Source: a virus
Length of the DNA: 64,000 nucleotides
Strand: one strand, 5' to 3'
Virus record (IMG/VR): IMGVR_UViG_3300025816_000002
In this document: piece after piece, positions 1-15,596 of the stretch
How the letters are laid out: every line of letters begins with the position of its first letter
How positions within the stretch are numbered: position 1 is the first letter of the stretch
Notes under the pieces: generated by a model
What the model saw: the letters and a program-made list of their open reading frames with translations, nothing else
Database searches by the model: none
Told to the model about the DNA's origin: nothing
Position numbers and translations under genes: made by a program

Positions 1-85
1 CAGCCATGATGCTGTTGATCTTTGTCATAATGTTTGTTAATCGTTTCATTGTTATTAAGTATTTATTTGTTATTGTTAAATTCAT
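1..85 (-). CDS. 5' part of an early gene running off the left edge (MNLTITNKYLITMKRLTNIMTKINSIMA...)
   Basis: ATG at 85 (or 49) directly behind an early promoter motif; frame open to position 1 and continues in frame at 64000 if the ends are joined. Confidence 0.6.
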   Translation of the reverse strand, partial: MNLTITNKYLITMKRLTNIMTKINSIMA

Positions 86-120
86 ATATATTATCGTATG
101 AGAGTCGTGTTAATGTTGTA
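81..120 (-). promoter_or_regulatory. Early promoter motif copy 1
   Basis: TACAA-N6-CACGA-N8-CGATAATATATATG on - strand; one of six copies with identical spacing. Confidence 0.8.
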
Positions 121-356
121 GGTATGTGAAGTGTATTGTGAGGATCCAAACGGAGTAGCCTGATCCGGTAGCTAGGGCCCGCGATAGAAAGCCTAAACCT
201 GGGCTGTAAACTGCATGGAAAAGCTGAAACCGTGCAGGAAAGCCGAAAAAAGGACAGGGGGCTGGGCAAAATGAAACGCGTTTCTGTATAGGATTAGCAA
301 GGTGAATTAAGTACGCAACCCCATCTCTCTCTATTGGTAATAATTTTAAAAAACAG

Positions 357-399
357 TGACGTTAGCCTAGTATAATATAATAATAGGGGGCTATTGTCG
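357..399. promoter_or_regulatory. Inverted-repeat element copy 1
   Basis: TGACGTTAGC-N23(AT-rich)-GCTATTGTCG; similar elements at 24709 and 56566. Confidence 0.7.
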
Positions 400-728: not shown

Positions 729-3700
729 ATGGCAATAATATATTCATACCCTGAGATACCTGATGTACAAGGAGGAGATTTACTACTTATAAGTGACACA
801 GGGGCCCCTAACAAGCCGACCAGGAGTGTGGACATAGATGACCTAGCTGCTTATATAGGTACGGTTGTGGGTGTTGTACAGAATTTACAATCAGTACTTA
901 CAGTTGGTAACACATATGTTAGCCCCGATGGATATGGTACGTTTACTTTAAATGATATTGCGAACAATGATGGTAGTATAAAGTTTGCAAATACAGATGA
1001 AGGATGGGGGTATCAAATTAGTGCAGAGGAGGGTTTTAACATTACTGATGGCCACGAAACTAACTTAATGTCCATTTATTCCTCAGGACTATCAATAAGA
1101 AATGGTGCTCAGATAATGAACATTGGTACTAATGCGTTAACCGCAACTAGAAATGTATACTTTCCAGACGCTTCAGGAACAATAGCATTAGAAAATGTAT
1201 CTGAATGGTATAATGTCACTGGTTCTAGAGGTTTAGGTAATTTATTGGTTAAAATAGGTGATTACGACAACTCTGGCAATGGCACTTTTCTTTCAATAGA
1301 CGATGCAGACCAGTCTATAATTTTTACAAAAGGAGGAGTGGTTGAAAGTAAGTTTGTATTTGCCGCTACTCAAGATAGAGATTACACGTTTCCTAACGCG
1401 GACGGAACAATTGCATTGACAAGTGATATACCAGCTCCTGGGCCTGGCGGATCTGGTACAACTAATTACACAGCTAGATGGACAAATGCTAGTACTTTAG
1501 GTATTGGTGCGTTATATGATAACGGTACTAATGTAGGTATTGGAACTACAAACCCAACACAAAAACTCGAAGTTAATGGTACCGTGTTACTTAGCACTTT
1601 ACCGAACAATAACGGAAGGCTATGTCTAGGTGATGTCAGTACTAACCTTTTCAGTAATGCCGCAAGCGGTCATTTGTATATTTCAACTAACAATTCTTCT
1701 AGAATGACTATTCTCAACAACGGCAATGTAGGGATCGGGACGACTAGTCCTGGTTTCAAGCTAGATGTTGCTGGAAATGCTAAAGTATCTTCTAATTTTT
1801 ACATAGGAAATGTGGATGCTGTAACAACAGCTACAGAGGTTTTAGTTAGACAAAGTGATAGAGTTAGAGGTATAACGCCTGCTAATTTAATAAACGCTTC
1901 TGGTGGTCCTTTCTTACCACTAGCTGGTGGTGCAATGACTGGAAATACAAACCACAGCGATAACGTAAAAGATAGATACGGAACAGGTAACGACTTCCAG
2001 ATATGGCATGATGGTTCAAATACTTTCTTAAGCAATGAAGGTGAGGGACATTTAAACATAATAAACACAGGTGACGACAGAGATATAATATTTAAGACAG
2101 ACGATGGTTCTGGAGCTACTACTTCATACATGGTAATTGATGGAAGCGCTGAGCAAACAAGGTTTTATAAAGACACTAGGTATACTGACGGTATAAAAGC
2201 AAATTTTGGTGACAGTAATGATTTACAAATATATCATAGTGGTTCCCACAGTTATATAAAAGACACAGGGACCGGCTCTTTATATTTACAAACAAATGGT
2301 TCGGCTATATACCTACAGGATACAGATGGTAATGCTATGGCTCAATTCACCGATGGTGGTGGTAGTTTTTTATTTTACAATGGTAATTTAAAATTATCAA
2401 CTACAAACACAGGTGTTACTGTAACGGGTGCAGCTACTGCAACTACTTTTTTAGGTGATTTAAACGGTACAATAAATACAGCAACTACAGCTGTAACAAA
2501 AGCAAACGCTACAAACGACACTACAGTAGCTACTACGGCTTTTGTACAAAACTTAATAGGTACAATACCTGCAGGTTTAGTATTTCAAGGTACGTGGAAC
2601 GCTGCAACAAACACACCAACTCTTACAAGCGGATCTGGTACAACAGGTCATTTCTATATAGTATCAACGGATGGTTCAACAAATCTAGACGGTATCACTG
2701 ACTGGAAAGTTGGTGACTGGGCTGTATTTGTAGAACAAGGTGCTAGCGATCAATGGGAAAAAGTAGATAACTCTTCTGTATTAGATGGATCTGGTACAGG
2801 TGGATCAATAGCTGGATGGGCAGGGTCTGGAACTTCAAACACACTAACCAATGCTCCTATAACATTCTCAGGTAATAATACAACTTTTGCAGGTAATATT
2901 ACTACAAATACTGGATTATTAGATTTAAATATTGGCACTACAAATATTGGAATTGAAGTAAAATCTACTGATGCTGGTTCATATATAAGATTTGATGATG
3001 GTGATAATGCTGACAGATGGTACTTAGGTGTACAAAGTGGGGATTTTGGAATTTACAATAATGCCAATGAAAAACCTTTTCAAATAGATTCATCTAAAAA
3101 CGCTACTTTTACAGGAAATATAAGCTTTGGTGATTCACATTTTATAGGTGATGATGCAAATGATAATTTATTAATCCAAGGTTCTGCTAGCGAAAATGTT
3201 ATCATAAGGTCAGAAGATGGTTTGTACTTTAGAACTGGCGGTAATAACACAAGGTTAAGTATCAATAGCTCTGGCAACGTCGGGATCGGAACTACCAGTC
3301 CTACAGCAAACCTTCATGTTACAGGCATCTCTTCTAGCGGTAATCTACCAATAGCTAAAATAGAATCCACAGGAAACATTAGTTATCTTAAATTCTTTAA
3401 TTCCTCAACTGGAACTGGATCCTCAGATGGCACGTATATAGGAATGAATGGCGGTACTGCTTATTTGATTAATAAAGAAGCTGGTAATTTGTATTTAGGA
3501 ACTGGCGACGATATTAATTTAACTTTACAAAACGGAGGTAATGTAGGGATCGGGACTACTAGTCCCTCTAGACCATTAAGTGTTTATAGAAGCACAGCAG
3601 GTTCAGCTGCAAACTTCCTACATTATACAGATGCTACAGCATTTGCTGGGCTATATATTGATGTTGATAATGTAAATAATATAGTAGAGCTTAATGCCAG

Positions 3701-5126
3701 CGGGGATACAGCGTCAACAATGGCTTTCCAAACAGGAAACGCTGAGAGAATGCGTATAACTACAACAGGTAACGTCGGGATTGGGACGACTAGTCCTGGT
3801 CATAAGTTATCGGTTATAGGTGGTCATATACAGACAGATGGTAATGTGTACACTAATGTTATTAGAGATAATACAGGAGGAAATGTTTCTATTCAAGACA
3901 ACGGAGGTAACGTAGGTATTGGAACTGCTAGTCCAGCGTATAAGTTAGATATTTATGGAGGAAATATTCAAATTAACAATGGAGGTGCTACTTGGCTCGG
4001 AAGTGATTCAACTGGTGGATTTGCTAGAACATTTAATGGTAACACATTTAGGTTTATAAGTTCATCTAATTCTGAAACCGTGAGAATTGATAATGCAACA
4101 GGTAACGTCGGTATCGGGGTGACTAGCCCAGCAACAGTAGGTGGAACCGCTAAGTTAACAGTAAATGTAGGAAGCGGAACCTCATCGCCAGTATCTATAG
4201 TAAACGGTACTACAGATGGTATGTATATTAGGAGGTATGCTGTGAATGGGCAATATCAAATTCAAACAACTTCTGGTAGCGGGAATAGTGGTAATTTATC
4301 TCTTCAATCATACGGAGGTAACGTAGGTATCGGGACGACTAATCCTGGAGGTAATCTACATGTTGTTGGTAGAGCAGGGCAAGCGGGGCAAATATATTTA
4401 TCAGATATTGACAACGGAAGTGGAACTGGCGATGCTTTGCTTATTTCTAAATCTGGTAATAATGCTTTTGTTTATAATAGAGATAGCGGTAGTTTATCTT
4501 TTGGTTCAAACAATACTAGTAACTATTTAAATATCACCTCTTCAGGCAACGTAGGTATTGGTACGACTAGTCCAGCTAACAAACTCGATGTTGTTGGTAT
4601 TTCTAGGTTTACACACTCTTCTTCAACATCTTATAGAGGAGCTATCGAAACAGTAACAGACAATGCATATCCTACTTGGGAAATTGGTTGGGTTCACACT
4701 AGAACTACCAGTAGTACTTATGGTACCATAGCACGTTTTAACAATCAAACCGGAACTTCAATAGGTGGTATTGTTTATAGCGGTTCTTCAGGAACTAGCT
4801 TTGTTACTACTTCAGACTACAGATTAAAGGAAAATATTAAAGAAATAAGAGACAGTATAAGTAGAGTCAAAAAACTCAAGCCGTGTAGATTTAATTTTGC
4901 TGCAGAGAAGAATAGGATTATAGATGGTTTTATAGCTCACGAAGTTCAAGAAGTAGTTCCTGAAGCTGTTCACGGTGAAAAAGATGCTCTGCAAAAAGAC
5001 GGGTCAATCGATGCTCAAACACTGGAGGTGTCTAGGTTGATTCCAGTACTTACAAAAGCGTTACAAGAAGCTATAAATAAAATAGAAGAACTAGAGTTAA
5101 GAATACAAACAATAGAAAACAATTAA
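729..5126 (+). CDS. Tail fibre with C-terminal intramolecular chaperone (peptidase S74)
   Basis: Nine (G/T)NVGIG(T/V)(T/A)(S/N)P repeats; C-terminal TSDYRLKENI...GFIAHEVQEVVPEAV and coiled-coil end. Confidence 0.9.
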   Translation: MAIIYSYPEIPDVQGGDLLLISDTGAPNKPTRSVDIDDLAAYIGTVVGVVQNLQSVLTVGNTYVSPDGYGTFTLNDIANNDGSIKFANTDEGWGYQISAEEGFNITDGHETNLMSIYSSGLSIRNGAQIMNIGTNALTATRNVYFPDASGTIALENVSEWYNVTGSRGLGNLLVKIGDYDNSGNGTFLSIDDADQSIIFTKGGVVESKFVFAATQDRDYTFPNADGTIALTSDIPAPGPGGSGTTNYTARWTNASTLGIGALYDNGTNVGIGTTNPTQKLEVNGTVLLSTLPNNNGRLCLGDVSTNLFSNAASGHLYISTNNSSRMTILNNGNVGIGTTSPGFKLDVAGNAKVSSNFYIGNVDAVTTATEVLVRQSDRVRGITPANLINASGGPFLPLAGGAMTGNTNHSDNVKDRYGTGNDFQIWHDGSNTFLSNEGEGHLNIINTGDDRDIIFKTDDGSGATTSYMVIDGSAEQTRFYKDTRYTDGIKANFGDSNDLQIYHSGSHSYIKDTGTGSLYLQTNGSAIYLQDTDGNAMAQFTDGGGSFLFYNGNLKLSTTNTGVTVTGAATATTFLGDLNGTINTATTAVTKANATNDTTVATTAFVQNLIGTIPAGLVFQGTWNAATNTPTLTSGSGTTGHFYIVSTDGSTNLDGITDWKVGDWAVFVEQGASDQWEKVDNSSVLDGSGTGGSIAGWAGSGTSNTLTNAPITFSGNNTTFAGNITTNTGLLDLNIGTTNIGIEVKSTDAGSYIRFDDGDNADRWYLGVQSGDFGIYNNANEKPFQIDSSKNATFTGNISFGDSHFIGDDANDNLLIQGSASENVIIRSEDGLYFRTGGNNTRLSINSSGNVGIGTTSPTANLHVTGISSSGNLPIAKIESTGNISYLKFFNSSTGTGSSDGTYIGMNGGTAYLINKEAGNLYLGTGDDINLTLQNGGNVGIGTTSPSRPLSVYRSTAGSAANFLHYTDATAFAGLYIDVDNVNNIVELNASGDTASTMAFQTGNAERMRITTTGNVGIGTTSPGHKLSVIGGHIQTDGNVYTNVIRDNTGGNVSIQDNGGNVGIGTASPAYKLDIYGGNIQINNGGATWLGSDSTGGFARTFNGNTFRFISSSNSETVRIDNATGNVGIGVTSPATVGGTAKLTVNVGSGTSSPVSIVNGTTDGMYIRRYAVNGQYQIQTTSGSGNSGNLSLQSYGGNVGIGTTNPGGNLHVVGRAGQAGQIYLSDIDNGSGTGDALLISKSGNNAFVYNRDSGSLSFGSNNTSNYLNITSSGNVGIGTTSPANKLDVVGISRFTHSSSTSYRGAIETVTDNAYPTWEIGWVHTRTTSSTYGTIARFNNQTGTSIGGIVYSGSSGTSFVTTSDYRLKENIKEIRDSISRVKKLKPCRFNFAAEKNRIIDGFIAHEVQEVVPEAVHGEKDALQKDGSIDAQTLEVSRLIPVLTKALQEAINKIEELELRIQTIENN

Positions 5127-5592: not shown

Positions 5593-7146
5593 ATGGATGC
5601 AATTGTTAAAAACCTAAACTTCGGAGAAGAAGCCAGGGTTAATGTATTTAAAGGTATAGAAAAACTTACAAATGCCGTTAGCTCCACATTAGGAGCTAGT
5701 GGTAAATGTGTAATGTTAGAAGACCACGCTGGAAACCCTATTATAACAAAAGATGGCGTTACAGTGGCTGATTCTATAATATTGAGAGACCCTGTAGAAA
5801 ATATGGGTGCTACTCTTTTAAAAGAAGCTGCAAGAAAGACTGTCCGAGAAGCAGGTGATGGTACCACCACGGCTACAGTACTTGCTCATGCAATTTTACA
5901 GGAGGCATATAAAGTTTCAGATAAAAAGAACTCAAGGGAATTAAAAGACGGTATAAATTCAGCTACGCAGAAAGTAGTTAAATACTTACAGTCTATAGCA
6001 GTGGGCGTTAAAGGTGATATGATAGATCAAATAGCTACGATATCAACAAACAACGACCCAGAGCTCGGTAAGATAATAGCTGATGCTTTTAGAGCAGTAG
6101 ATAACACAGGTGTTGTAATGATGGAAACATCAGCGGACGGTAAAACATCGGTGGAAATTGTTGATGGCGTACAATACAACAAGGGATTAACAAATTCTCA
6201 TTTCATAACAAACCAGCAAACAAAAACAGCTGAATTAGAAAACCCGTTGATTTTACTTATAGAATCTCCGGTTGACACAATAAGACAGATACAATCTGTA
6301 CTAGAGTATGTAATAAAAAACAATAAACCTTTGCTTATTATAGGCGATTTAGAACAAGGTGTTTTATCTGCTCTAGCTATGAATAAGAATAAAGGTAATA
6401 TAAAGGTTAATGTGGTTAATGCACCTACTTACGGTGTTAGCAAACAGGAAGTTTTAGAAGACTTATCTTTATTAACAGGTGCTACGGTGATAAATGAAGA
6501 TCTAGGGGATGATATGGATATGATCCAAGTTGAATACTTAGGCACTTGTTTAAAAAGCGTCACCTCTCACGAAGACACCATTATTCAAGTAAAAGAGTCA
6601 AGTGATGAAATCTTAAGCATCATAGATGACATTAAGAAAAAAATAGCAGAAGCTAAACAACCACATGAAGTGGTGAAACTAGAAAAGAGATTAGCCATGC
6701 TAGCAGCTAAAATAGCTATTGTAAAAATAGGTGCTGACTCAGAAGTCGAACTGAAAGAAAAAACCGACAGAGTAGAAGATGCTATTTGCGCAACCAAAGC
6801 CGCAATTAAAGAAGGAATTGTTCCCGGAGGAGGAATTGCGCTACTAAATGCTTCTACAAATATAGCGTCTAAGTCTGAAGGTGAAGCAGTGCTCCTGGAA
6901 GCAATTAGGGCGCCATATAAGACAATATTGGATAACGCCGGCATAATAGACTACGAAACTCATAAAGTTAAAGGAAGAGGCCTTAATGTGGTTACTGGAA
7001 AAACAGTGAATATGATTAAGTCTGGGATTATAGATCCTTTGCTAGTTACAAAAAGTGCATTGAGAAATGCAGCATCGGTAGCTACTACTATTTTATCAAC
7101 TGATTGTGTAATCAATAACTTGAGAATAGATGAGAGCGGTAGGTAA
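5593..7146 (+). CDS. groEL: Phage chaperonin GroEL
   Basis: ITKDGVTVA, AGDGTTTATVLA, GIVPGGGIAL, GIIDPLLVTKSAL; no GGM tail. Confidence 0.97.
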   Translation: MDAIVKNLNFGEEARVNVFKGIEKLTNAVSSTLGASGKCVMLEDHAGNPIITKDGVTVADSIILRDPVENMGATLLKEAARKTVREAGDGTTTATVLAHAILQEAYKVSDKKNSRELKDGINSATQKVVKYLQSIAVGVKGDMIDQIATISTNNDPELGKIIADAFRAVDNTGVVMMETSADGKTSVEIVDGVQYNKGLTNSHFITNQQTKTAELENPLILLIESPVDTIRQIQSVLEYVIKNNKPLLIIGDLEQGVLSALAMNKNKGNIKVNVVNAPTYGVSKQEVLEDLSLLTGATVINEDLGDDMDMIQVEYLGTCLKSVTSHEDTIIQVKESSDEILSIIDDIKKKIAEAKQPHEVVKLEKRLAMLAAKIAIVKIGADSEVELKEKTDRVEDAICATKAAIKEGIVPGGGIALLNASTNIASKSEGEAVLLEAIRAPYKTILDNAGIIDYETHKVKGRGLNVVTGKTVNMIKSGIIDPLLVTKSALRNAASVATTILSTDCVINNLRIDESGR

Positions 7147-10175: not shown

Positions 10176-10583
10176 ATGAAAAAAATATTAGAATTTTTCA
10201 GTACTAAAGTCTTCAAACAAGTTGGTGATGTGGTTGATAACCTATTCACCAGCGAAGAAGAAAGACTTAACGCTAGAAATGCGATATTTAAAGTGCTACA
10301 AGATGCTCAACTAGAATTGCAAAAAATGCAAACTGAGATCATTGTAGCTGAAGCTAGCGGTAATTGGTTACAAAGAAGTTGGAGACCAATACTGATGCTA
10401 TCATTTGGCTTTATAATCATATATACAAAATTCATATCGCAACTATCAACATACTTAATAACACCTGTTTTAGAACCAGAATTCTGGAGCTTATTAGAAA
10501 TAGGTATTGGAGGTTATGTAATTGGTAGAAGTGGTGAAAAAATCGTGGACAAACTAGGGCCACTATTCAATAAAAATAAATAA
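10176..10583 (+). CDS. Holin (3TM/GTA-holin-like)
   Basis: AEASGNWLQRSWRP, hydrophobic helices, GIGGYVIGRSGEK. Confidence 0.75.
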   Translation: MKKILEFFSTKVFKQVGDVVDNLFTSEEERLNARNAIFKVLQDAQLELQKMQTEIIVAEASGNWLQRSWRPILMLSFGFIIIYTKFISQLSTYLITPVLEPEFWSLLEIGIGGYVIGRSGEKIVDKLGPLFNKNK

Positions 10584-10884: not shown

Positions 10885-11040
10885 ATGGGCGGCCAATCTA
10901 TAGGGATAGGTATATGGTGGCCTACCCAATCTTCACTTATACCAGGCTTGATAAAAACTTTATGTGCAAGATCCACATATTGTGAAAACAAGACCTGCAC
11001 CACAGCTATACTTCAAAAACTAGAAAACTGTAAATCATAA
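10885..11040 (+). CDS. 51-aa putative fibre anchor peptide
   Basis: Not in the track: MGGQSIGIGIWWPTQSSLIPGLIKTLCARSTYCENKTCTTAILQKLENCKS; stop overlaps next ATG (TAATG). Confidence 0.7.
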   Translation: MGGQSIGIGIWWPTQSSLIPGLIKTLCARSTYCENKTCTTAILQKLENCKS

Positions 11041-14000
11041 TGAGTAATTTACTGAAAGATGCCTCAATACTTTTAACTCCTACCGCTTATGAAAATGGGC
11101 GTATGAATGCTATTAAGCCTTATAAAGATTTATATGGCCCGGAGCTTGTGACTAATGGAGATTTTGCAACAGATAGTGATTGGACAAAAGGAATTGGATG
11201 GTCAATATCAAGTGGAACTGCAAATGCTAATAGTGCTTCATCATCTTATTTTTATCAAAATATAAATGAGTTAGGGGTTGGTAAAACATACAAAGTTACT
11301 TACACAATCACTTCTTACACTTCTGGAAGTGTCGTTACTGGTATTGGAGACCTTTTAGGTAACAGAGGTGTAATAAGGAATGCTATTGGTACTTACACAG
11401 ACACAATTACGTTTGTTAATAATACCGCAAATAGCTATTTTGGTTTTTTTGCAACAAGTAGTTTTACTGGCTCAATAGACAACGTTTCAGTAGTAGAAGA
11501 TTTAAGTGGAGATTTCCAATTCAGTAGAAATTCTGCTGCAACTAGAGTTAATGCACAAGGTTTAGTAGAGAATGTACAGATAATAAGTCCAGAGTTAGTT
11601 TCAAATGGTAACTTTTCACAGATAGGTACAGAAGAAGTTTCTAATGGTAACTTTTCACAAGAAGGAAGTGAGCTTGTTACAAATGGAGATTTTAGTAATG
11701 GTACTACTGATTGGACTCCTAATGCTTCTGCAACGTTAAGTATAGATACAGGCAGATTAAAAATTGCTATAAGTGGTGAAGCTTCAGGCTATGCAAAACA
11801 AGATATTTTCACAATAGAAAGTGGCAAACAATATAAATGTACAGGGACTGTTGATTTTGGTACTGCATCACAAATGAGATTTTATGTAAGTAATACAGGA
11901 CAATTTTTTGATATAACTCAATCAGGTAATTTTAATTTTACATTTACTTCAACAGGAACATCTACACAAATTAGACTTTATACTTATGGTGATGGTAATT
12001 ATGGTTTTTGGGATAACATCTCAGTAAAAGAAGTCGGACAAGATTGGAGTTTAGGAACTGGATGGAGTATTGGAGATGATAAGGCTGTTGCAACAGACGT
12101 TAATAACGCTTTTTTAGAACAATCAAATATATTAACTATTGGTAAATCATATAAAATAACATATACAATACTAGATTATGTTAGTGGTAATGTTAGATTT
12201 AGAGCAAATTTAGTTAATGGTACTACAAATGGTGGTAATGGCACATATACAGATTATATTGTATCTGCTGGTACAAAATTTGCACTACAAGGATTAAATA
12301 GTTTCAATGGCTCTATAACAAACATCTCAGTTAAAGAAGTAGGGCAAGATTGGAGTTTAGGAAGTGGTTGGAGTATGGGAGATGGAATTGTTGAAGCAAA
12401 TAATACATCTTCATTTATAAGTCAAAGTGGTTTAATTGAAGCATCAAAACTTTATAGGTTAACATTTGAAGCAAGATTAAAAAGTGGAACAAATGGAACT
12501 ATTAATGCTTATATAGGTGGCTCTAATAATAAACAATTTACAATAGCTAATACTGATTGGCAAAGTTTTACTTATGAAAATACAAGGGGTGGTTCAAGTG
12601 CTGATTCTATTTATTTTAACAATAACGGAACAGAATTAGAATTAGACAACATCTCAGTTAAAGAAATAACAGACGATACAGATTTACCAAGAATAAACTA
12701 CGAAGGGTTTAGTTATCAAGATTCTTTAGGGAGTGAGGAAGTTGTGAATGGAGATTTTAGTAATGGAAGTGCTAATTGGACTACTGAGAATACTTGGACT
12801 ATTGAAAATGGAGTTGCTAATGGTAATGGAGCTAATGGAAGTACAGAAGAATTAGTGCAAGTCAATGTTAATACTACTGGTAAAACATATAAAGCAACTT
12901 TTGAAGTATTAAATTACGTTAGTGGTAGTGTTGGGTTTTGGAAAGGAAGTGGGATTGCTTTAACTCAAAGAAATGCTAATGGTACTTATACAGAATACTT
13001 TACAGCTACAAGCGACCAAATAAGATTTAGAGGTATAAACTTCATAGGCTCAATAGACAACGTATCTGTAAAAGAATATCTTGGTCAAGAAGTAGTACCA
13101 GATAGTGGTTGTGGAAGTTGGTTGCTAGAGCCACAGAGTACGAATTTGATAACTTATAGTGAGGATTTTTCAAGTGGAAGTTGGGTTAAAACAGATTGTT
13201 CTGTAGTTTCTAATTTTGGAGTTTCGCCAAGTGGGCAAAACAATGCGTCTAAATTTACATTTACTACCACCAACACAAGTGCAAGGGCGCAATACAATTT
13301 AGGTAGTTTAACAACGGGAAACACATATACGCAATCATACTATATAAAAAGTCTTGGAGCAGATATAACTTTAAGAATAGGAACAAGCGCATCAGCTGTT
13401 GGGGAATTTACTGATATAATTGCCACAAGTGAATGGCAAAGATTTGAATTTACGGGGATTGCATCTGCCACAACTGAATTTCCGAGAGTACAGAATATAA
13501 CAGGTGCTTTAGGTGTTGAAATATTAGTTTGGGGCGCACAACTAGAACAACAATCCTACGCAACCTCATACATTCCAACTAACGGAGCAACAAACACTAG
13601 GCTACAAGATATTGCAACCAATAGTGGTAACTCTACTTTGATAAATAGTACAGAGGGTGTATTGTATGCTGACATAGCAGCTTTGGCTAATGACGGAGGT
13701 TTAAGATTACTGCAATTATCAGATGGAACTAACACTAATAGGGTTTCATTATATTATGATACCGCAATAAATACAATATACTCTAACGTGGTAGTTAATG
13801 GTGTATCAAATCCTTTAAGTAGTAGTGTAGATATCCTTAATTTTACAAAAGTGGCAGTAACTTGGAAACAAAACGATTTTGGTCTTTGGATAAATGGTTT
13901 AAAAGTAGGCACAGATACAAGCGGTTTAAGTTTTCCAAATAACACTTTAAATGATTTAAGTTTTAGTTTAAATGGATTGTATAATTTCTACGGAAAAAAC

Positions 14001-15596
14001 AAAGCACTAGCAGTTTACAAAGAAGCATTAACAGATGCAAATCTAAGATGCCTTACATATCCAAATCCAGTTGCAACAACATTTGATTTAGACTTTGATA
14101 CTATTGCAGAGCAGTTTACATTTACTAGAGGCTCTGAAGCTACGTTTGTAAACGCACAAGGGTTAATTGAAAGTACAAATCAGATAGGTCCAGAATTGGT
14201 GACTAATGGTGATTTTGCAACAGATAGTGATTGGAGTAAAGTAAATGCTACTATTAGTGATGGTAAAGGTAACTTAGATTCAACGAGTTCAACATCTATA
14301 TTATTTCAACAAAACGTATTAACAGTTGGTAAAACATATAAAGCAAACTTTGATGTTTCTAATTACAATGGTTTAGGAACTTGTGCTTTAATCAACAGTT
14401 CAGGCGGTACTCAATTCGAAATAACATCTAATGGGAATAAAGATTTTTATTTTACACAAGGAGGTAGTTCTGCAAACTTATCTTTTAGAGCAGTAGCAAG
14501 TGGTGTTTTCTCAATAGACAACGTTTCAGTAAAAGAAGTAACAACTGCAACTAACACGCCAAGAATAGATTACTCAACTGGTGAAAAAGCATTTTTACTT
14601 GAACCGCAGAGTACAAATTTAGTACCTTATTCAGAGGATTTTAGTGATAGTAGTTGGACTCAAAATTTAGAAATAAGTATTGTGAGTGATAGCGGTATAT
14701 CTCCATCAGGGATATTAAATGCACAAAAGGTAATACCAACTACAAATAATACAAGGCACGGTGTTGGTCGTACAACTCAAGCTATAGTAGGTCATACTTA
14801 TTCTGTTTTTGCTAAAGCTGATGGTTATGATTGGATATTATTGACAAGTCATATATCGTCAGCGCCCGCAGGAAGAGGTACTTTCTTTGATGTTAAAAAT
14901 GGAGTAGTAGGGACAATAGGTACCGCTTCTCAAAACGCTACAATAGAAGATGTAGGTAATGGTTGGTACAGATGTTCTATTGATGAAGGCTCTTCACCAA
15001 GTTCTATTTTTACAGTCATAGTAGCAGAACAAGACAATGTTGATACGTTTGTAGGAGATGGTAGTAAAGGAGTGTTAGTTTGGGGTGCGCAGAGAGAAGC
15101 ATTACCCTACGCAACCTCATACATCCCAACCTCTGTAGCAACAGCTACTAGAAATCAAGAATTATGTAACAATGCAACACCAGTTATTAATAGCGAGGAG
15201 GGAACATTGTATGCAGAATTTCAAGGGCTTTCATCAAGTGTGGGAAATAAAGTAATTTCATTAAATGATGGAACTAATACTAATGCTTTTTGGCTTTATA
15301 TTATTTCATCAAGTAATGGGATTAGAATATATGATGGAGCTACAATCGGAACATATTTTTCAGTAAATGCATTTGAAAACAATAAATTTGCATTGGTTTA
15401 TAATTCAACAAATACAAGGTTATTTATAAATGGTTCTTTAGCTATTACTATTCCTTTTAAATCAATGAGTAATTTAAATAAAATTTCTTTTTCTGATGGA
15501 AATGAAGGGCAAAAATTTGAAGGTAATATAAAAGGTTTAAAATATTATCCAAAAGCATTAGCAGACGTACAATTAGAAGATTTAACAACAATATAA
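11040..15596 (+). CDS. Large head/tail fibre with six CBM-like cassettes and duplicated lectin-like scaffold
   Basis: Six E(L/E)V(T/S/V)NG(D/N)F...(D/T)N(V/I)SV(K/V)E units; two copies of ATxVNAQGL...PRI(N/D)Y...LLEPQSTNL...WGAQ...YATSYIPT. Confidence 0.8.
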   Translation: MSNLLKDASILLTPTAYENGRMNAIKPYKDLYGPELVTNGDFATDSDWTKGIGWSISSGTANANSASSSYFYQNINELGVGKTYKVTYTITSYTSGSVVTGIGDLLGNRGVIRNAIGTYTDTITFVNNTANSYFGFFATSSFTGSIDNVSVVEDLSGDFQFSRNSAATRVNAQGLVENVQIISPELVSNGNFSQIGTEEVSNGNFSQEGSELVTNGDFSNGTTDWTPNASATLSIDTGRLKIAISGEASGYAKQDIFTIESGKQYKCTGTVDFGTASQMRFYVSNTGQFFDITQSGNFNFTFTSTGTSTQIRLYTYGDGNYGFWDNISVKEVGQDWSLGTGWSIGDDKAVATDVNNAFLEQSNILTIGKSYKITYTILDYVSGNVRFRANLVNGTTNGGNGTYTDYIVSAGTKFALQGLNSFNGSITNISVKEVGQDWSLGSGWSMGDGIVEANNTSSFISQSGLIEASKLYRLTFEARLKSGTNGTINAYIGGSNNKQFTIANTDWQSFTYENTRGGSSADSIYFNNNGTELELDNISVKEITDDTDLPRINYEGFSYQDSLGSEEVVNGDFSNGSANWTTENTWTIENGVANGNGANGSTEELVQVNVNTTGKTYKATFEVLNYVSGSVGFWKGSGIALTQRNANGTYTEYFTATSDQIRFRGINFIGSIDNVSVKEYLGQEVVPDSGCGSWLLEPQSTNLITYSEDFSSGSWVKTDCSVVSNFGVSPSGQNNASKFTFTTTNTSARAQYNLGSLTTGNTYTQSYYIKSLGADITLRIGTSASAVGEFTDIIATSEWQRFEFTGIASATTEFPRVQNITGALGVEILVWGAQLEQQSYATSYIPTNGATNTRLQDIATNSGNSTLINSTEGVLYADIAALANDGGLRLLQLSDGTNTNRVSLYYDTAINTIYSNVVVNGVSNPLSSSVDILNFTKVAVTWKQNDFGLWINGLKVGTDTSGLSFPNNTLNDLSFSLNGLYNFYGKNKALAVYKEALTDANLRCLTYPNPVATTFDLDFDTIAEQFTFTRGSEATFVNAQGLIESTNQIGPELVTNGDFATDSDWSKVNATISDGKGNLDSTSSTSILFQQNVLTVGKTYKANFDVSNYNGLGTCALINSSGGTQFEITSNGNKDFYFTQGGSSANLSFRAVASGVFSIDNVSVKEVTTATNTPRIDYSTGEKAFLLEPQSTNLVPYSEDFSDSSWTQNLEISIVSDSGISPSGILNAQKVIPTTNNTRHGVGRTTQAIVGHTYSVFAKADGYDWILLTSHISSAPAGRGTFFDVKNGVVGTIGTASQNATIEDVGNGWYRCSIDEGSSPSSIFTVIVAEQDNVDTFVGDGSKGVLVWGAQREALPYATSYIPTSVATATRNQELCNNATPVINSEEGTLYAEFQGLSSSVGNKVISLNDGTNTNAFWLYIISSSNGIRIYDGATIGTYFSVNAFENNKFALVYNSTNTRLFINGSLAITIPFKSMSNLNKISFSDGNEGQKFEGNIKGLKYYPKALADVQLEDLTTI

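Follow-up and report, generated by a model that had tools for sequence, protein, structure and literature searches.

Predicted self-nesting of carbohydrate-binding-like jelly-roll domains in a fibre-like protein family of marine phages

How can three complete domains be folded from a chain in which three short N-terminal units are laid end to end, and are followed by three bodies of which only the first directly adjoins such a unit? This question is raised by P0001, a fibre/tail-like virion protein of 1518 amino acids (aa) encoded at 11040..15596 on the + strand (from the open reading frame list and its translation, with a phrog_5939 match) of the window, i.e., the whole 64,000-nucleotide (nt) stretch of viral DNA analysed here (IMG/VR virus record IMGVR_UViG_3300025816_000002). 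A first-pass annotation had read this region as three cassettes nested in one another, with C inside B and B inside A, the insertion in each case following the first NGxF strand. Our analysis supports this reading: the outer and inner pairs are found in the predicted structure, heads and bodies are in parity among relatives, and covariation links head 1 with body A and head 2 with body B. Overall, we put at about 0.85 the probability that aa 185-542 form three CBM4/CBM16-like β-jelly-rolls (CBM, carbohydrate-binding module) with the nested chain topology A1-B1-C-B2-A2.

Three heads followed by three bodies

The three head units of 13 aa adjoin at aa 185, 198 and 211 of P0001, with an exact 39-nt period. 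Head 1 (ELVSNGNFSQIGT, aa 185-197, 11592..11630, +) is predicted, from model alignments and covariation, to supply the first strand of the outermost domain A. Head 2 (EEVSNGNFSQEGS, aa 198-210, 11631..11669, +) would, judging from elimination in the model and from covariation, provide the first strand of the middle domain B, and head 3 (ELVTNGDFSNGTT, 11670-11708, +) opens the innermost domain C. Domain C (aa 211-331, 11670..12032, +) is complete and comprises head 3, a body and the tail DNISVKE, which ends at 12032; it is recognized by Pfam CBM_4_9 and by its alignment with the CBM16 structure 2zey. It is followed by a joint VGQ and headless body B (aa 332-433, 12033..12338, +), whose tail TNISVKE ends at 12338, and then by a second joint VGQ and headless body A (aa 434-542, 12339..12665, +), whose tail DNISVKE ends at 12665 and which is joined to head 1 in the model. 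Both of these bodies open with VGQ-DWSLG(T/S)GW, and no head precedes either. The strings and coordinates originally given for the three heads and three tails were all correct on re-check, and the DNA repeats claimed at the joints occur exactly at their given places and at no others, AATGGTAACTTTTCACA at 11604 and 11643 and CAAGATTGGAGTTTAGGAA at 12039 and 12345. Both joints are covered by a 79-nt direct repeat with 84% identity.

The stand-alone cassettes of the same protein provide the uninterrupted form of the domain. Cassette 1 (aa 35-153, 11142..11498, +), cassette 5 (aa 566-679, 12735..13076, +) and cassette 6 (aa 1052-1166) each run from head through a four-residue loop, DW, body and tail without a break. 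We built a family profile from uninterrupted cassettes of relatives. On the stand-alone cassettes its alignment begins at the head, extending in cassette 1 from the head region to the end, whereas on body B (hmm 24-129, E 4.9e-27) and body A (hmm 24-129, E 2.2e-14) it begins just before DW. Bodies B and A are therefore without a head, since the profile covers them only from just before DW onward. The loop itself reads NGDF-ATDS-DW (four residues) in the stand-alone form, as against NGNF-SQ/insert/GQ-DW in the split form, so that the residue count agrees with insertion into this loop. The layout of three heads and then three bodies is not due to chance, because it recurs in ~180 homologues, with the 13-aa spacing of the heads, down to ~40% identity.

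Predicted structure of the nest

We modelled aa 160-700 with AlphaFold2, using an alignment with 103 homologous segments, and compared structures by VIA-align. The mean predicted local distance difference test (pLDDT) value was 85.8, with 86-91 for heads 2-3 and ~65 at the start of head 1. Single-domain CBM16, CBM4, CBM61 and CBM22 chains (142-167 aa) align to model positions 24..384, which correspond to aa 183-543, with 119-129 residues aligned at a root-mean-square deviation (rmsd) of 2.1-2.8 Å and Z of 13-14.8. These alignments begin at head 1 and skip ~240 residues; body A alone, with ~109 residues, is shorter than what is aligned in these single-chain matches. Other single CBM chains align to model positions 50..173, i.e., head 3 plus body C. 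From these single-chain alignment ranges, the outer (head 1-body A) and inner (head 3-body C) pairs are therefore nested in the model. In the model, the outer domain A is discontinuous, its head 1 being separated from body A by whole inserted domains.

For the middle pair, a second AlphaFold2 model, of aa 194-436 (head 2 to B), reached a pLDDT of 93.1, and all its single-domain VIA-align rows fall on domain C. Three viral ESM-Atlas clusters have ESMFold models that superpose on this fragment, from head 2 to B, with 235-239 of its 243 residues covered (template modelling score, TM, 0.79-0.86), so that with a second predictor, too, relatives have the two-domain arrangement of the head 2-to-B model. 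Together, elimination, covariation, the absence of head 2 from two-body relatives and the ESMFold match suggest that head 2 pairs with body B.

The fold assignment draws on both sequence and structure. A Pfam search with the whole P0001 protein gave nothing significant, and a PDB sequence search with P0001 gave no match. With the innermost cassette isolated (aa 211-332), Pfam CBM_4_9 (PF02018) is detected at 32.5 bits (gathering cut-off 25.9; E 1.3e-7), and the alignment covers profile positions 2-130 of 136, starting from head 3. On the predicted models, 2zey superposes with Z 14.8-14.9 and rmsd 2.1-2.3 Å over 121 of 144-145 residues, and 1gui with Z 13.1-13.3; for domain C against the CBM16 structure 2zey, the values are Z 14.9, rmsd 2.3 Å and 121 residues. 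By superposition, the predicted domains thus have the CBM4/16/22-type β-jelly-roll fold. The bodies are probably ligand-binding, likely glycan-binding, surfaces, and a 'receptor-binding' role for the fibre is suggested, from the fold and the PHROG annotation only.

Covariation and depth among relatives

The covariation between heads and bodies was examined in 170 cleanly parsed proteins with three heads and three bodies. Among all pairs of head and tail positions, the top pair is residue 1 of head 1 with position 6 of the last tail: N at the former goes with I/L/V at the latter in 82/90 cases, and E with K in 75/82. Similarly, when head position 4 is compared with the residue before W, mutual information (MI) is 0.383 for head 1 and the start of A and 0.325 for head 2 and the start of B, as against 0.075 and 0.150 for the crossed pairs (0.150 being head 2 with the start of A). 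Proximity on the DNA does not explain this covariation, because the partner of head 1 is the more distant joint. As a sequence signal, covariation supports the pairing of head 1 with body A and of head 2 with body B, and not the reverse.

The P0001 family is large, with 966 word-index matches and 4088 representative clusters at E <= 1e-3 (596 of them at E <= 1e-30), and a tblastn search with aa 1-700 of P0001 gave no match in 50,697 cultured-phage records. In 195 of its proteins, heads and bodies were counted by regular expression (regex) between the invariant anchors RVNAQGLVE and (I/V)xDDTxLPRI, and every apparent mismatch was inspected by eye. All but two of the apparent mismatches turned out to be motif variants, such as NKVQNGDF, EGITNGDF and ISAIE. 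Two heads go with two bodies in 8/8 two-body proteins, with head 2 absent from all eight; three go with three in ~180 proteins, four with four in six (P0012, P0065, P0082, P0064, P0036 and P0163) and five with five in P0013. This parity of heads and bodies at depths 2-5 calls for a nested topology. Each depth class except the single 5:5 protein contains several head-sequence types, and the 2- and 4-deep classes are for this reason not one clade. Trimer symmetry, with three heads for three subunits, was also considered and is ruled out by the 2-, 4- and 5-deep forms.

The depth series extends to relatives that carry no cassette at all. The nest of P0001 is bordered by collar 1 (aa 154-184, 11499..11591, +; ending FSRNSAATRVNAQGLVENVQIISP), which is the upstream half of the host loop and is nearly invariant in 104 homologues, and by the linker ITDDTDLPRINYEGFSYQDSLGS (aa 543-565, 12666..12734, +), the nearly invariant downstream half. 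Between the collar and PRI(D/N)Y, 15 sites enclose no cassette, 33 enclose one, 8 two, 207 three, 6 four and 2 five. At the cassette-free sites, the collar motif ..ATxVNAQGL(V/I)E.. runs directly into PRI(D/N)Y (GLIESTASNDAPRIDY). Since the same host loop occurs with and without cassettes, the nest is itself inserted into the leader of a ConA/LamG-like domain, and the expectation that relatives of different depth would exist has been confirmed for 0, 1, 2, 3, 4 and 5 cassettes at this loop. The 33 one-cassette sites include aa 1030-1178 of P0001 itself, where collar 2 and the single cassette 6 (aa 1030-1166, 14127..14537, +) are, by comparison of the host loops, the 1-deep form of the nest site. 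At this second collar (14127-14573), the homologues P0010, P0011, P0018, P0026 and P0033 display a clean presence/absence polymorphism of the whole CBM-like domain.

Weighing of alternative explanations

Several observations weigh against nesting. Two proteins break the parity: in P0005 (aa 160-790), a singleton from a contig of 3.9 kb, 3 heads go with 5 bodies, and in P0206 (aa 150-540) 2 heads go with 3 bodies, of which the middle one is orphaned. Such proteins may represent intermediate steps in evolution or chimeric assemblies, or else a headless domain may be tolerated in them. The topology that the first-pass annotation expected from structure prediction appears for the outer and inner pairs in the AlphaFold2 model, but the head 2-body B pairing is never an alignment range in either model; moreover, contacts were deduced from alignment ranges only, within predicted models. 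Neither bodies B and A nor the stand-alone cassettes 1, 5 and 6 match PF02018 even at E 10, and all five are CBM-like by fold and in-family profile only. Finally, two major lineages confound the covariation and inflate all its values. If the region were instead a plain tandem array, the 13-aa units would be a short repeat linker, and B and A would be N-terminally shortened jelly rolls that fold by themselves. The excess of bodies over heads in P0005 and P0206 fits such an array, as does the lack of a direct view of the head 2-body B contact in the models. But all other proteins keep parity at depths 2, 3, 4 and 5, the last body has head 1 for its first strand in the AlphaFold2 model, and the covariation of heads and bodies is reciprocal, while the parity breakers are singletons on short contigs, and assemblies of this family tend to break at the joints. 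We thus consider a tandem array improbable.

The heads could also act between subunits, with heads 1 and 2 completing the headless bodies of neighbouring chains by donor-strand complementation or 3D domain swapping. Many phage fibres are trimeric, the nest has three heads for three bodies, and inter-chain pairing would be invisible to monomer prediction. However, heads that match the bodies at depths 2, 4 and 5 do not look like a symmetry-linked number, the short split loop (SQ/.../GQ) puts the start of each body by its own head in cis, and the monomer model is confident, so that an exchange of strands between subunits appears very improbable. As for an assembly artefact, in which mis-joins at the joint repeats would conceal bodies in another order or number, the Logan contigs from four marine runs do break at the joints, with alternative bodies following and depth peaking there. 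None of these contigs extends into unique sequence in both directions from the B-A joint, which they bridge through conserved sequence only. On the other hand, one 1184-nt contig (run X8) spans the heads, C, joint 1 and B; the identical P0001 protein is carried by two contigs, the longer of 65 kb; nine studies supply 14 marine metagenome runs in which a near-identical stretch is present, each run with at least 82% of the words; and the same architecture is found in hundreds of independent proteins. We give such an artefact hardly any credence. With regard to the call for read support at the junctions, the architecture, seen on hundreds of independent contigs, is no artefact and the order heads-C-B is bridged, but the adjacency of B and A lacks a bridge of unique sequence.

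Proposed mechanism and exchange of bodies

We propose that every domain of the nest would require its own short N-terminal head (x-G-x-E-[EL]-V-x-N-G-x-F), adjoining its own C-terminal strand (...N-I-S-V-K-E). The contiguous domain C would be placed in the four-residue head-DW loop of B, B with C in the equivalent loop of A, and the whole stack in the loop GLVE...PRINY, which leads into a ConA/LamG-like domain. With the stack so inserted in the host loop, both chain ends would exit at its base and the stack would project as a side arm. Two chain segments would cross each joint between neighbouring domains, and a stiffer arm may be expected; in the AlphaFold2 model, long continuous strands pass through the joints. 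If true, the nest would be a model for how nested domains might lend an arm more stiffness than a beads-on-a-string chain has, as well as a natural scaffold for protein engineers, with binding modules stacked through a fixed loop. As to its origin, insertion of a whole cassette into the head-DW loop would be the simplest route to each added level. Alternatively, separate duplication of the 39-nt head and of the body would give parity-breaking intermediates like P0005 and P0206.

Heads, tails and joints are nearly invariant, and bodies are hypervariable. Among close relatives, heads are 98-100% identical and bodies change singly. Compared with P0001, P0002 has bodies C and A at 100% and B at 54% identity; P0003 has C at 100%, B at 94% and A at 38%; P0008 and P0033 have B at 83-86%, with C and A unlike those of P0001; and the 2-deep P0123 has body A at 95%. 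Body types are also common to the stand-alone, innermost, middle and outer positions. For example, stand-alone cassette 6 and the innermost cassette in the nest of P0014 share 95% identity, stand-alone cassette 5 is 71% identical to a middle (headless-position) body of P0183, and a C-like body occupies the outer slot of P0092 and P0018. A distinct, larger body type of ~135 aa is outermost in P0097, P0113, P0059, P0153 and P0036; it opens with VLQ(N/D)W..DYGAVS.SAVITP and ends with YFY(I/V)D(D/N)(V/F)SV(I/V/K)E. As this type takes the outer position in several lineages, the outer slot accepts a different jelly-roll sub-family.

The borders of these swaps in near-identical relatives are the conserved NISVKE-VGQDW joints. 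In the four marine runs, summed contig depth rises several-fold at the joints (12011-12104, 12293-12386 and 12622-12762), and loose contig ends carry other bodies behind identical joint sequence, one of them resembling the IGTATITENQ body of P0005 and P0013. The depth peaks and alternative bodies fit recombination at the conserved joints, which is the suggested mechanism of body swapping; the joints may thus double as DNA-level sites for the exchange of single bodies between phages. Short-read assemblies break at the joints because many variants share the joint sequences, and P0005 may accordingly be a chimera; if true, this accounts for the broken or chimeric metagenome assemblies inside P0001-family genes. 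Insertion had been put forward as a way to lengthen and diversify the fibre. Relatives with 0 to 5 cassettes at one loop suggest that probable binding modules are gained and lost there as well as exchanged, but present-day diversification is mainly by the swap of headless bodies at the joints and not by fresh insertions. We tentatively suggest, without leaning on it, that heads, tails and joints make up a 'bracket grammar', at once a protein scaffold and a DNA recombination site, by which marine Bacteroidota phages could add, delete or replace lectin-like modules while the domains stay foldable. If true, this grammar would be a natural plug-in diversification of host range, distinct from tandem-repeat shuffling and from diversity-generating retroelements. 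The nesting, if real, would offer a testable model of how uncultured marine Flavobacteriia phages vary their probable host-binding surfaces module by module.

Relation to known systems

Recursive self-nesting has been documented for the sandwich-barrel hybrid motif (SBHM) domains of Si3 in the cyanobacterial RNA polymerase β' subunit (domain-insertion survey, PMC13114784). Like the P0001 nest, Si3 has copies of one small β-rich fold nested several levels deep (A1-B1-C-B2-A2), with a depth that varies by lineage; the SBHM fold there belongs to a cellular enzyme, whereas the fold here is a CBM-type jelly roll in a viral surface fibre. We know of no report for Si3 of body-by-body swapping of cassettes or of a series of depths from 0 to 5 at one loop in close relatives. 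The CBM4, CBM16, CBM22 and CBM61 modules of glycoside hydrolases (PDB 2zey, 2zew, 1gui, 2xom and 1h6y) share the jelly-roll fold with the predicted P0001 domains (Z 13-15, rmsd 2.1-2.8 Å, ~120 residues), but they are contiguous, usually tandem, and only 12-19% identical in sequence to the P0001 cassettes, a level that yielded no assignment of ligand residues. Vip3 toxins and the EngBF/GH101 endo-alpha-N-acetylgalactosaminidases (PDB 6tfj, 2zxq and 5a55) carry at least two CBM4-like jelly rolls per chain, and C plus B are matched over 207-221 residues. However, their domains are beads on a string, and the two-domain superposition has an rmsd of 15-17 Å (best 7.8 Å), i.e., the mutual arrangement is not common to P0001.

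Single heterotypic CBM insertions are also found in phage adhesion devices, namely the 'evolved' Dit and BppA of lactococcal and Oenococcus phages. In these, too, a β-sandwich domain of a host-recognition protein has a module for sugar binding plugged into one of its loops, but the insertion is single-level and heterotypic, whereas the P0001 family has one fold nested in itself two to five deep within a ConA/LamG-like host. A search of the literature on nested or discontinuous CBMs in phage fibres found nothing specific, only a general domain-insertion survey. The P0001 nest would be an instance of a known phenomenon, recursive domain insertion; it stands out by how abundant it is, by the polymorphism of its depth and by its exchange module by module. 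If the nested reading is true, this is a common and so far undescribed marine phage fibre family, with a design rule of self-nested lectin-like domains and generic, interchangeable first strands.

Host regions and genome context

Downstream of the nest and cassette 5 lies ConA/LamG-like host region 1 (aa 680-1029, 13077..14126, +), which opens with ...SWLLEPQSTNL and has a weak Laminin_G_3 match (E 0.0035). Host region 2 (aa 1167-1518, 14538..15593, +) follows cassette 6 and matches Laminin_G_3 (E 1.1e-5) and phrog_5939; PF13385 is precomputed for many P0001 homologues. The C-terminal part of P0001 matches phrog_5939, annotated as 'tail protein', with E 3.9e-72. This PHROG homology, together with the neighbouring terminase, portal and second fibre, identifies P0001 as a phage tail/fibre protein. 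The genome is that of a phage, as the window encodes a terminase, a portal, structural proteins, a second fibre and a GroEL-like gene. Its TerL is ~45% identical to the TerL of Flavobacterium, Cellulophaga and Tenacibaculum podophages.

Shortly upstream of the P0001 gene, a 135-aa protein (10176-10583, +) matches Pfam GTA_holin_3TM (PF11351, E 2e-11), a holin type whose name derives from gene transfer agents. The second large fibre (1465 aa, 729-5126, +) has tail-fibre PHROG matches and carries at its C-terminus a Peptidase_S74 intramolecular chaperone (endosialidase-chaperone) domain (aa 1362-1415, E 9.7e-12); it contains no back-to-back head motifs. Between both fibre genes, the phage encodes a GroEL-like chaperonin (5593-7146, +; phrog_5725, E 1.5e-135).

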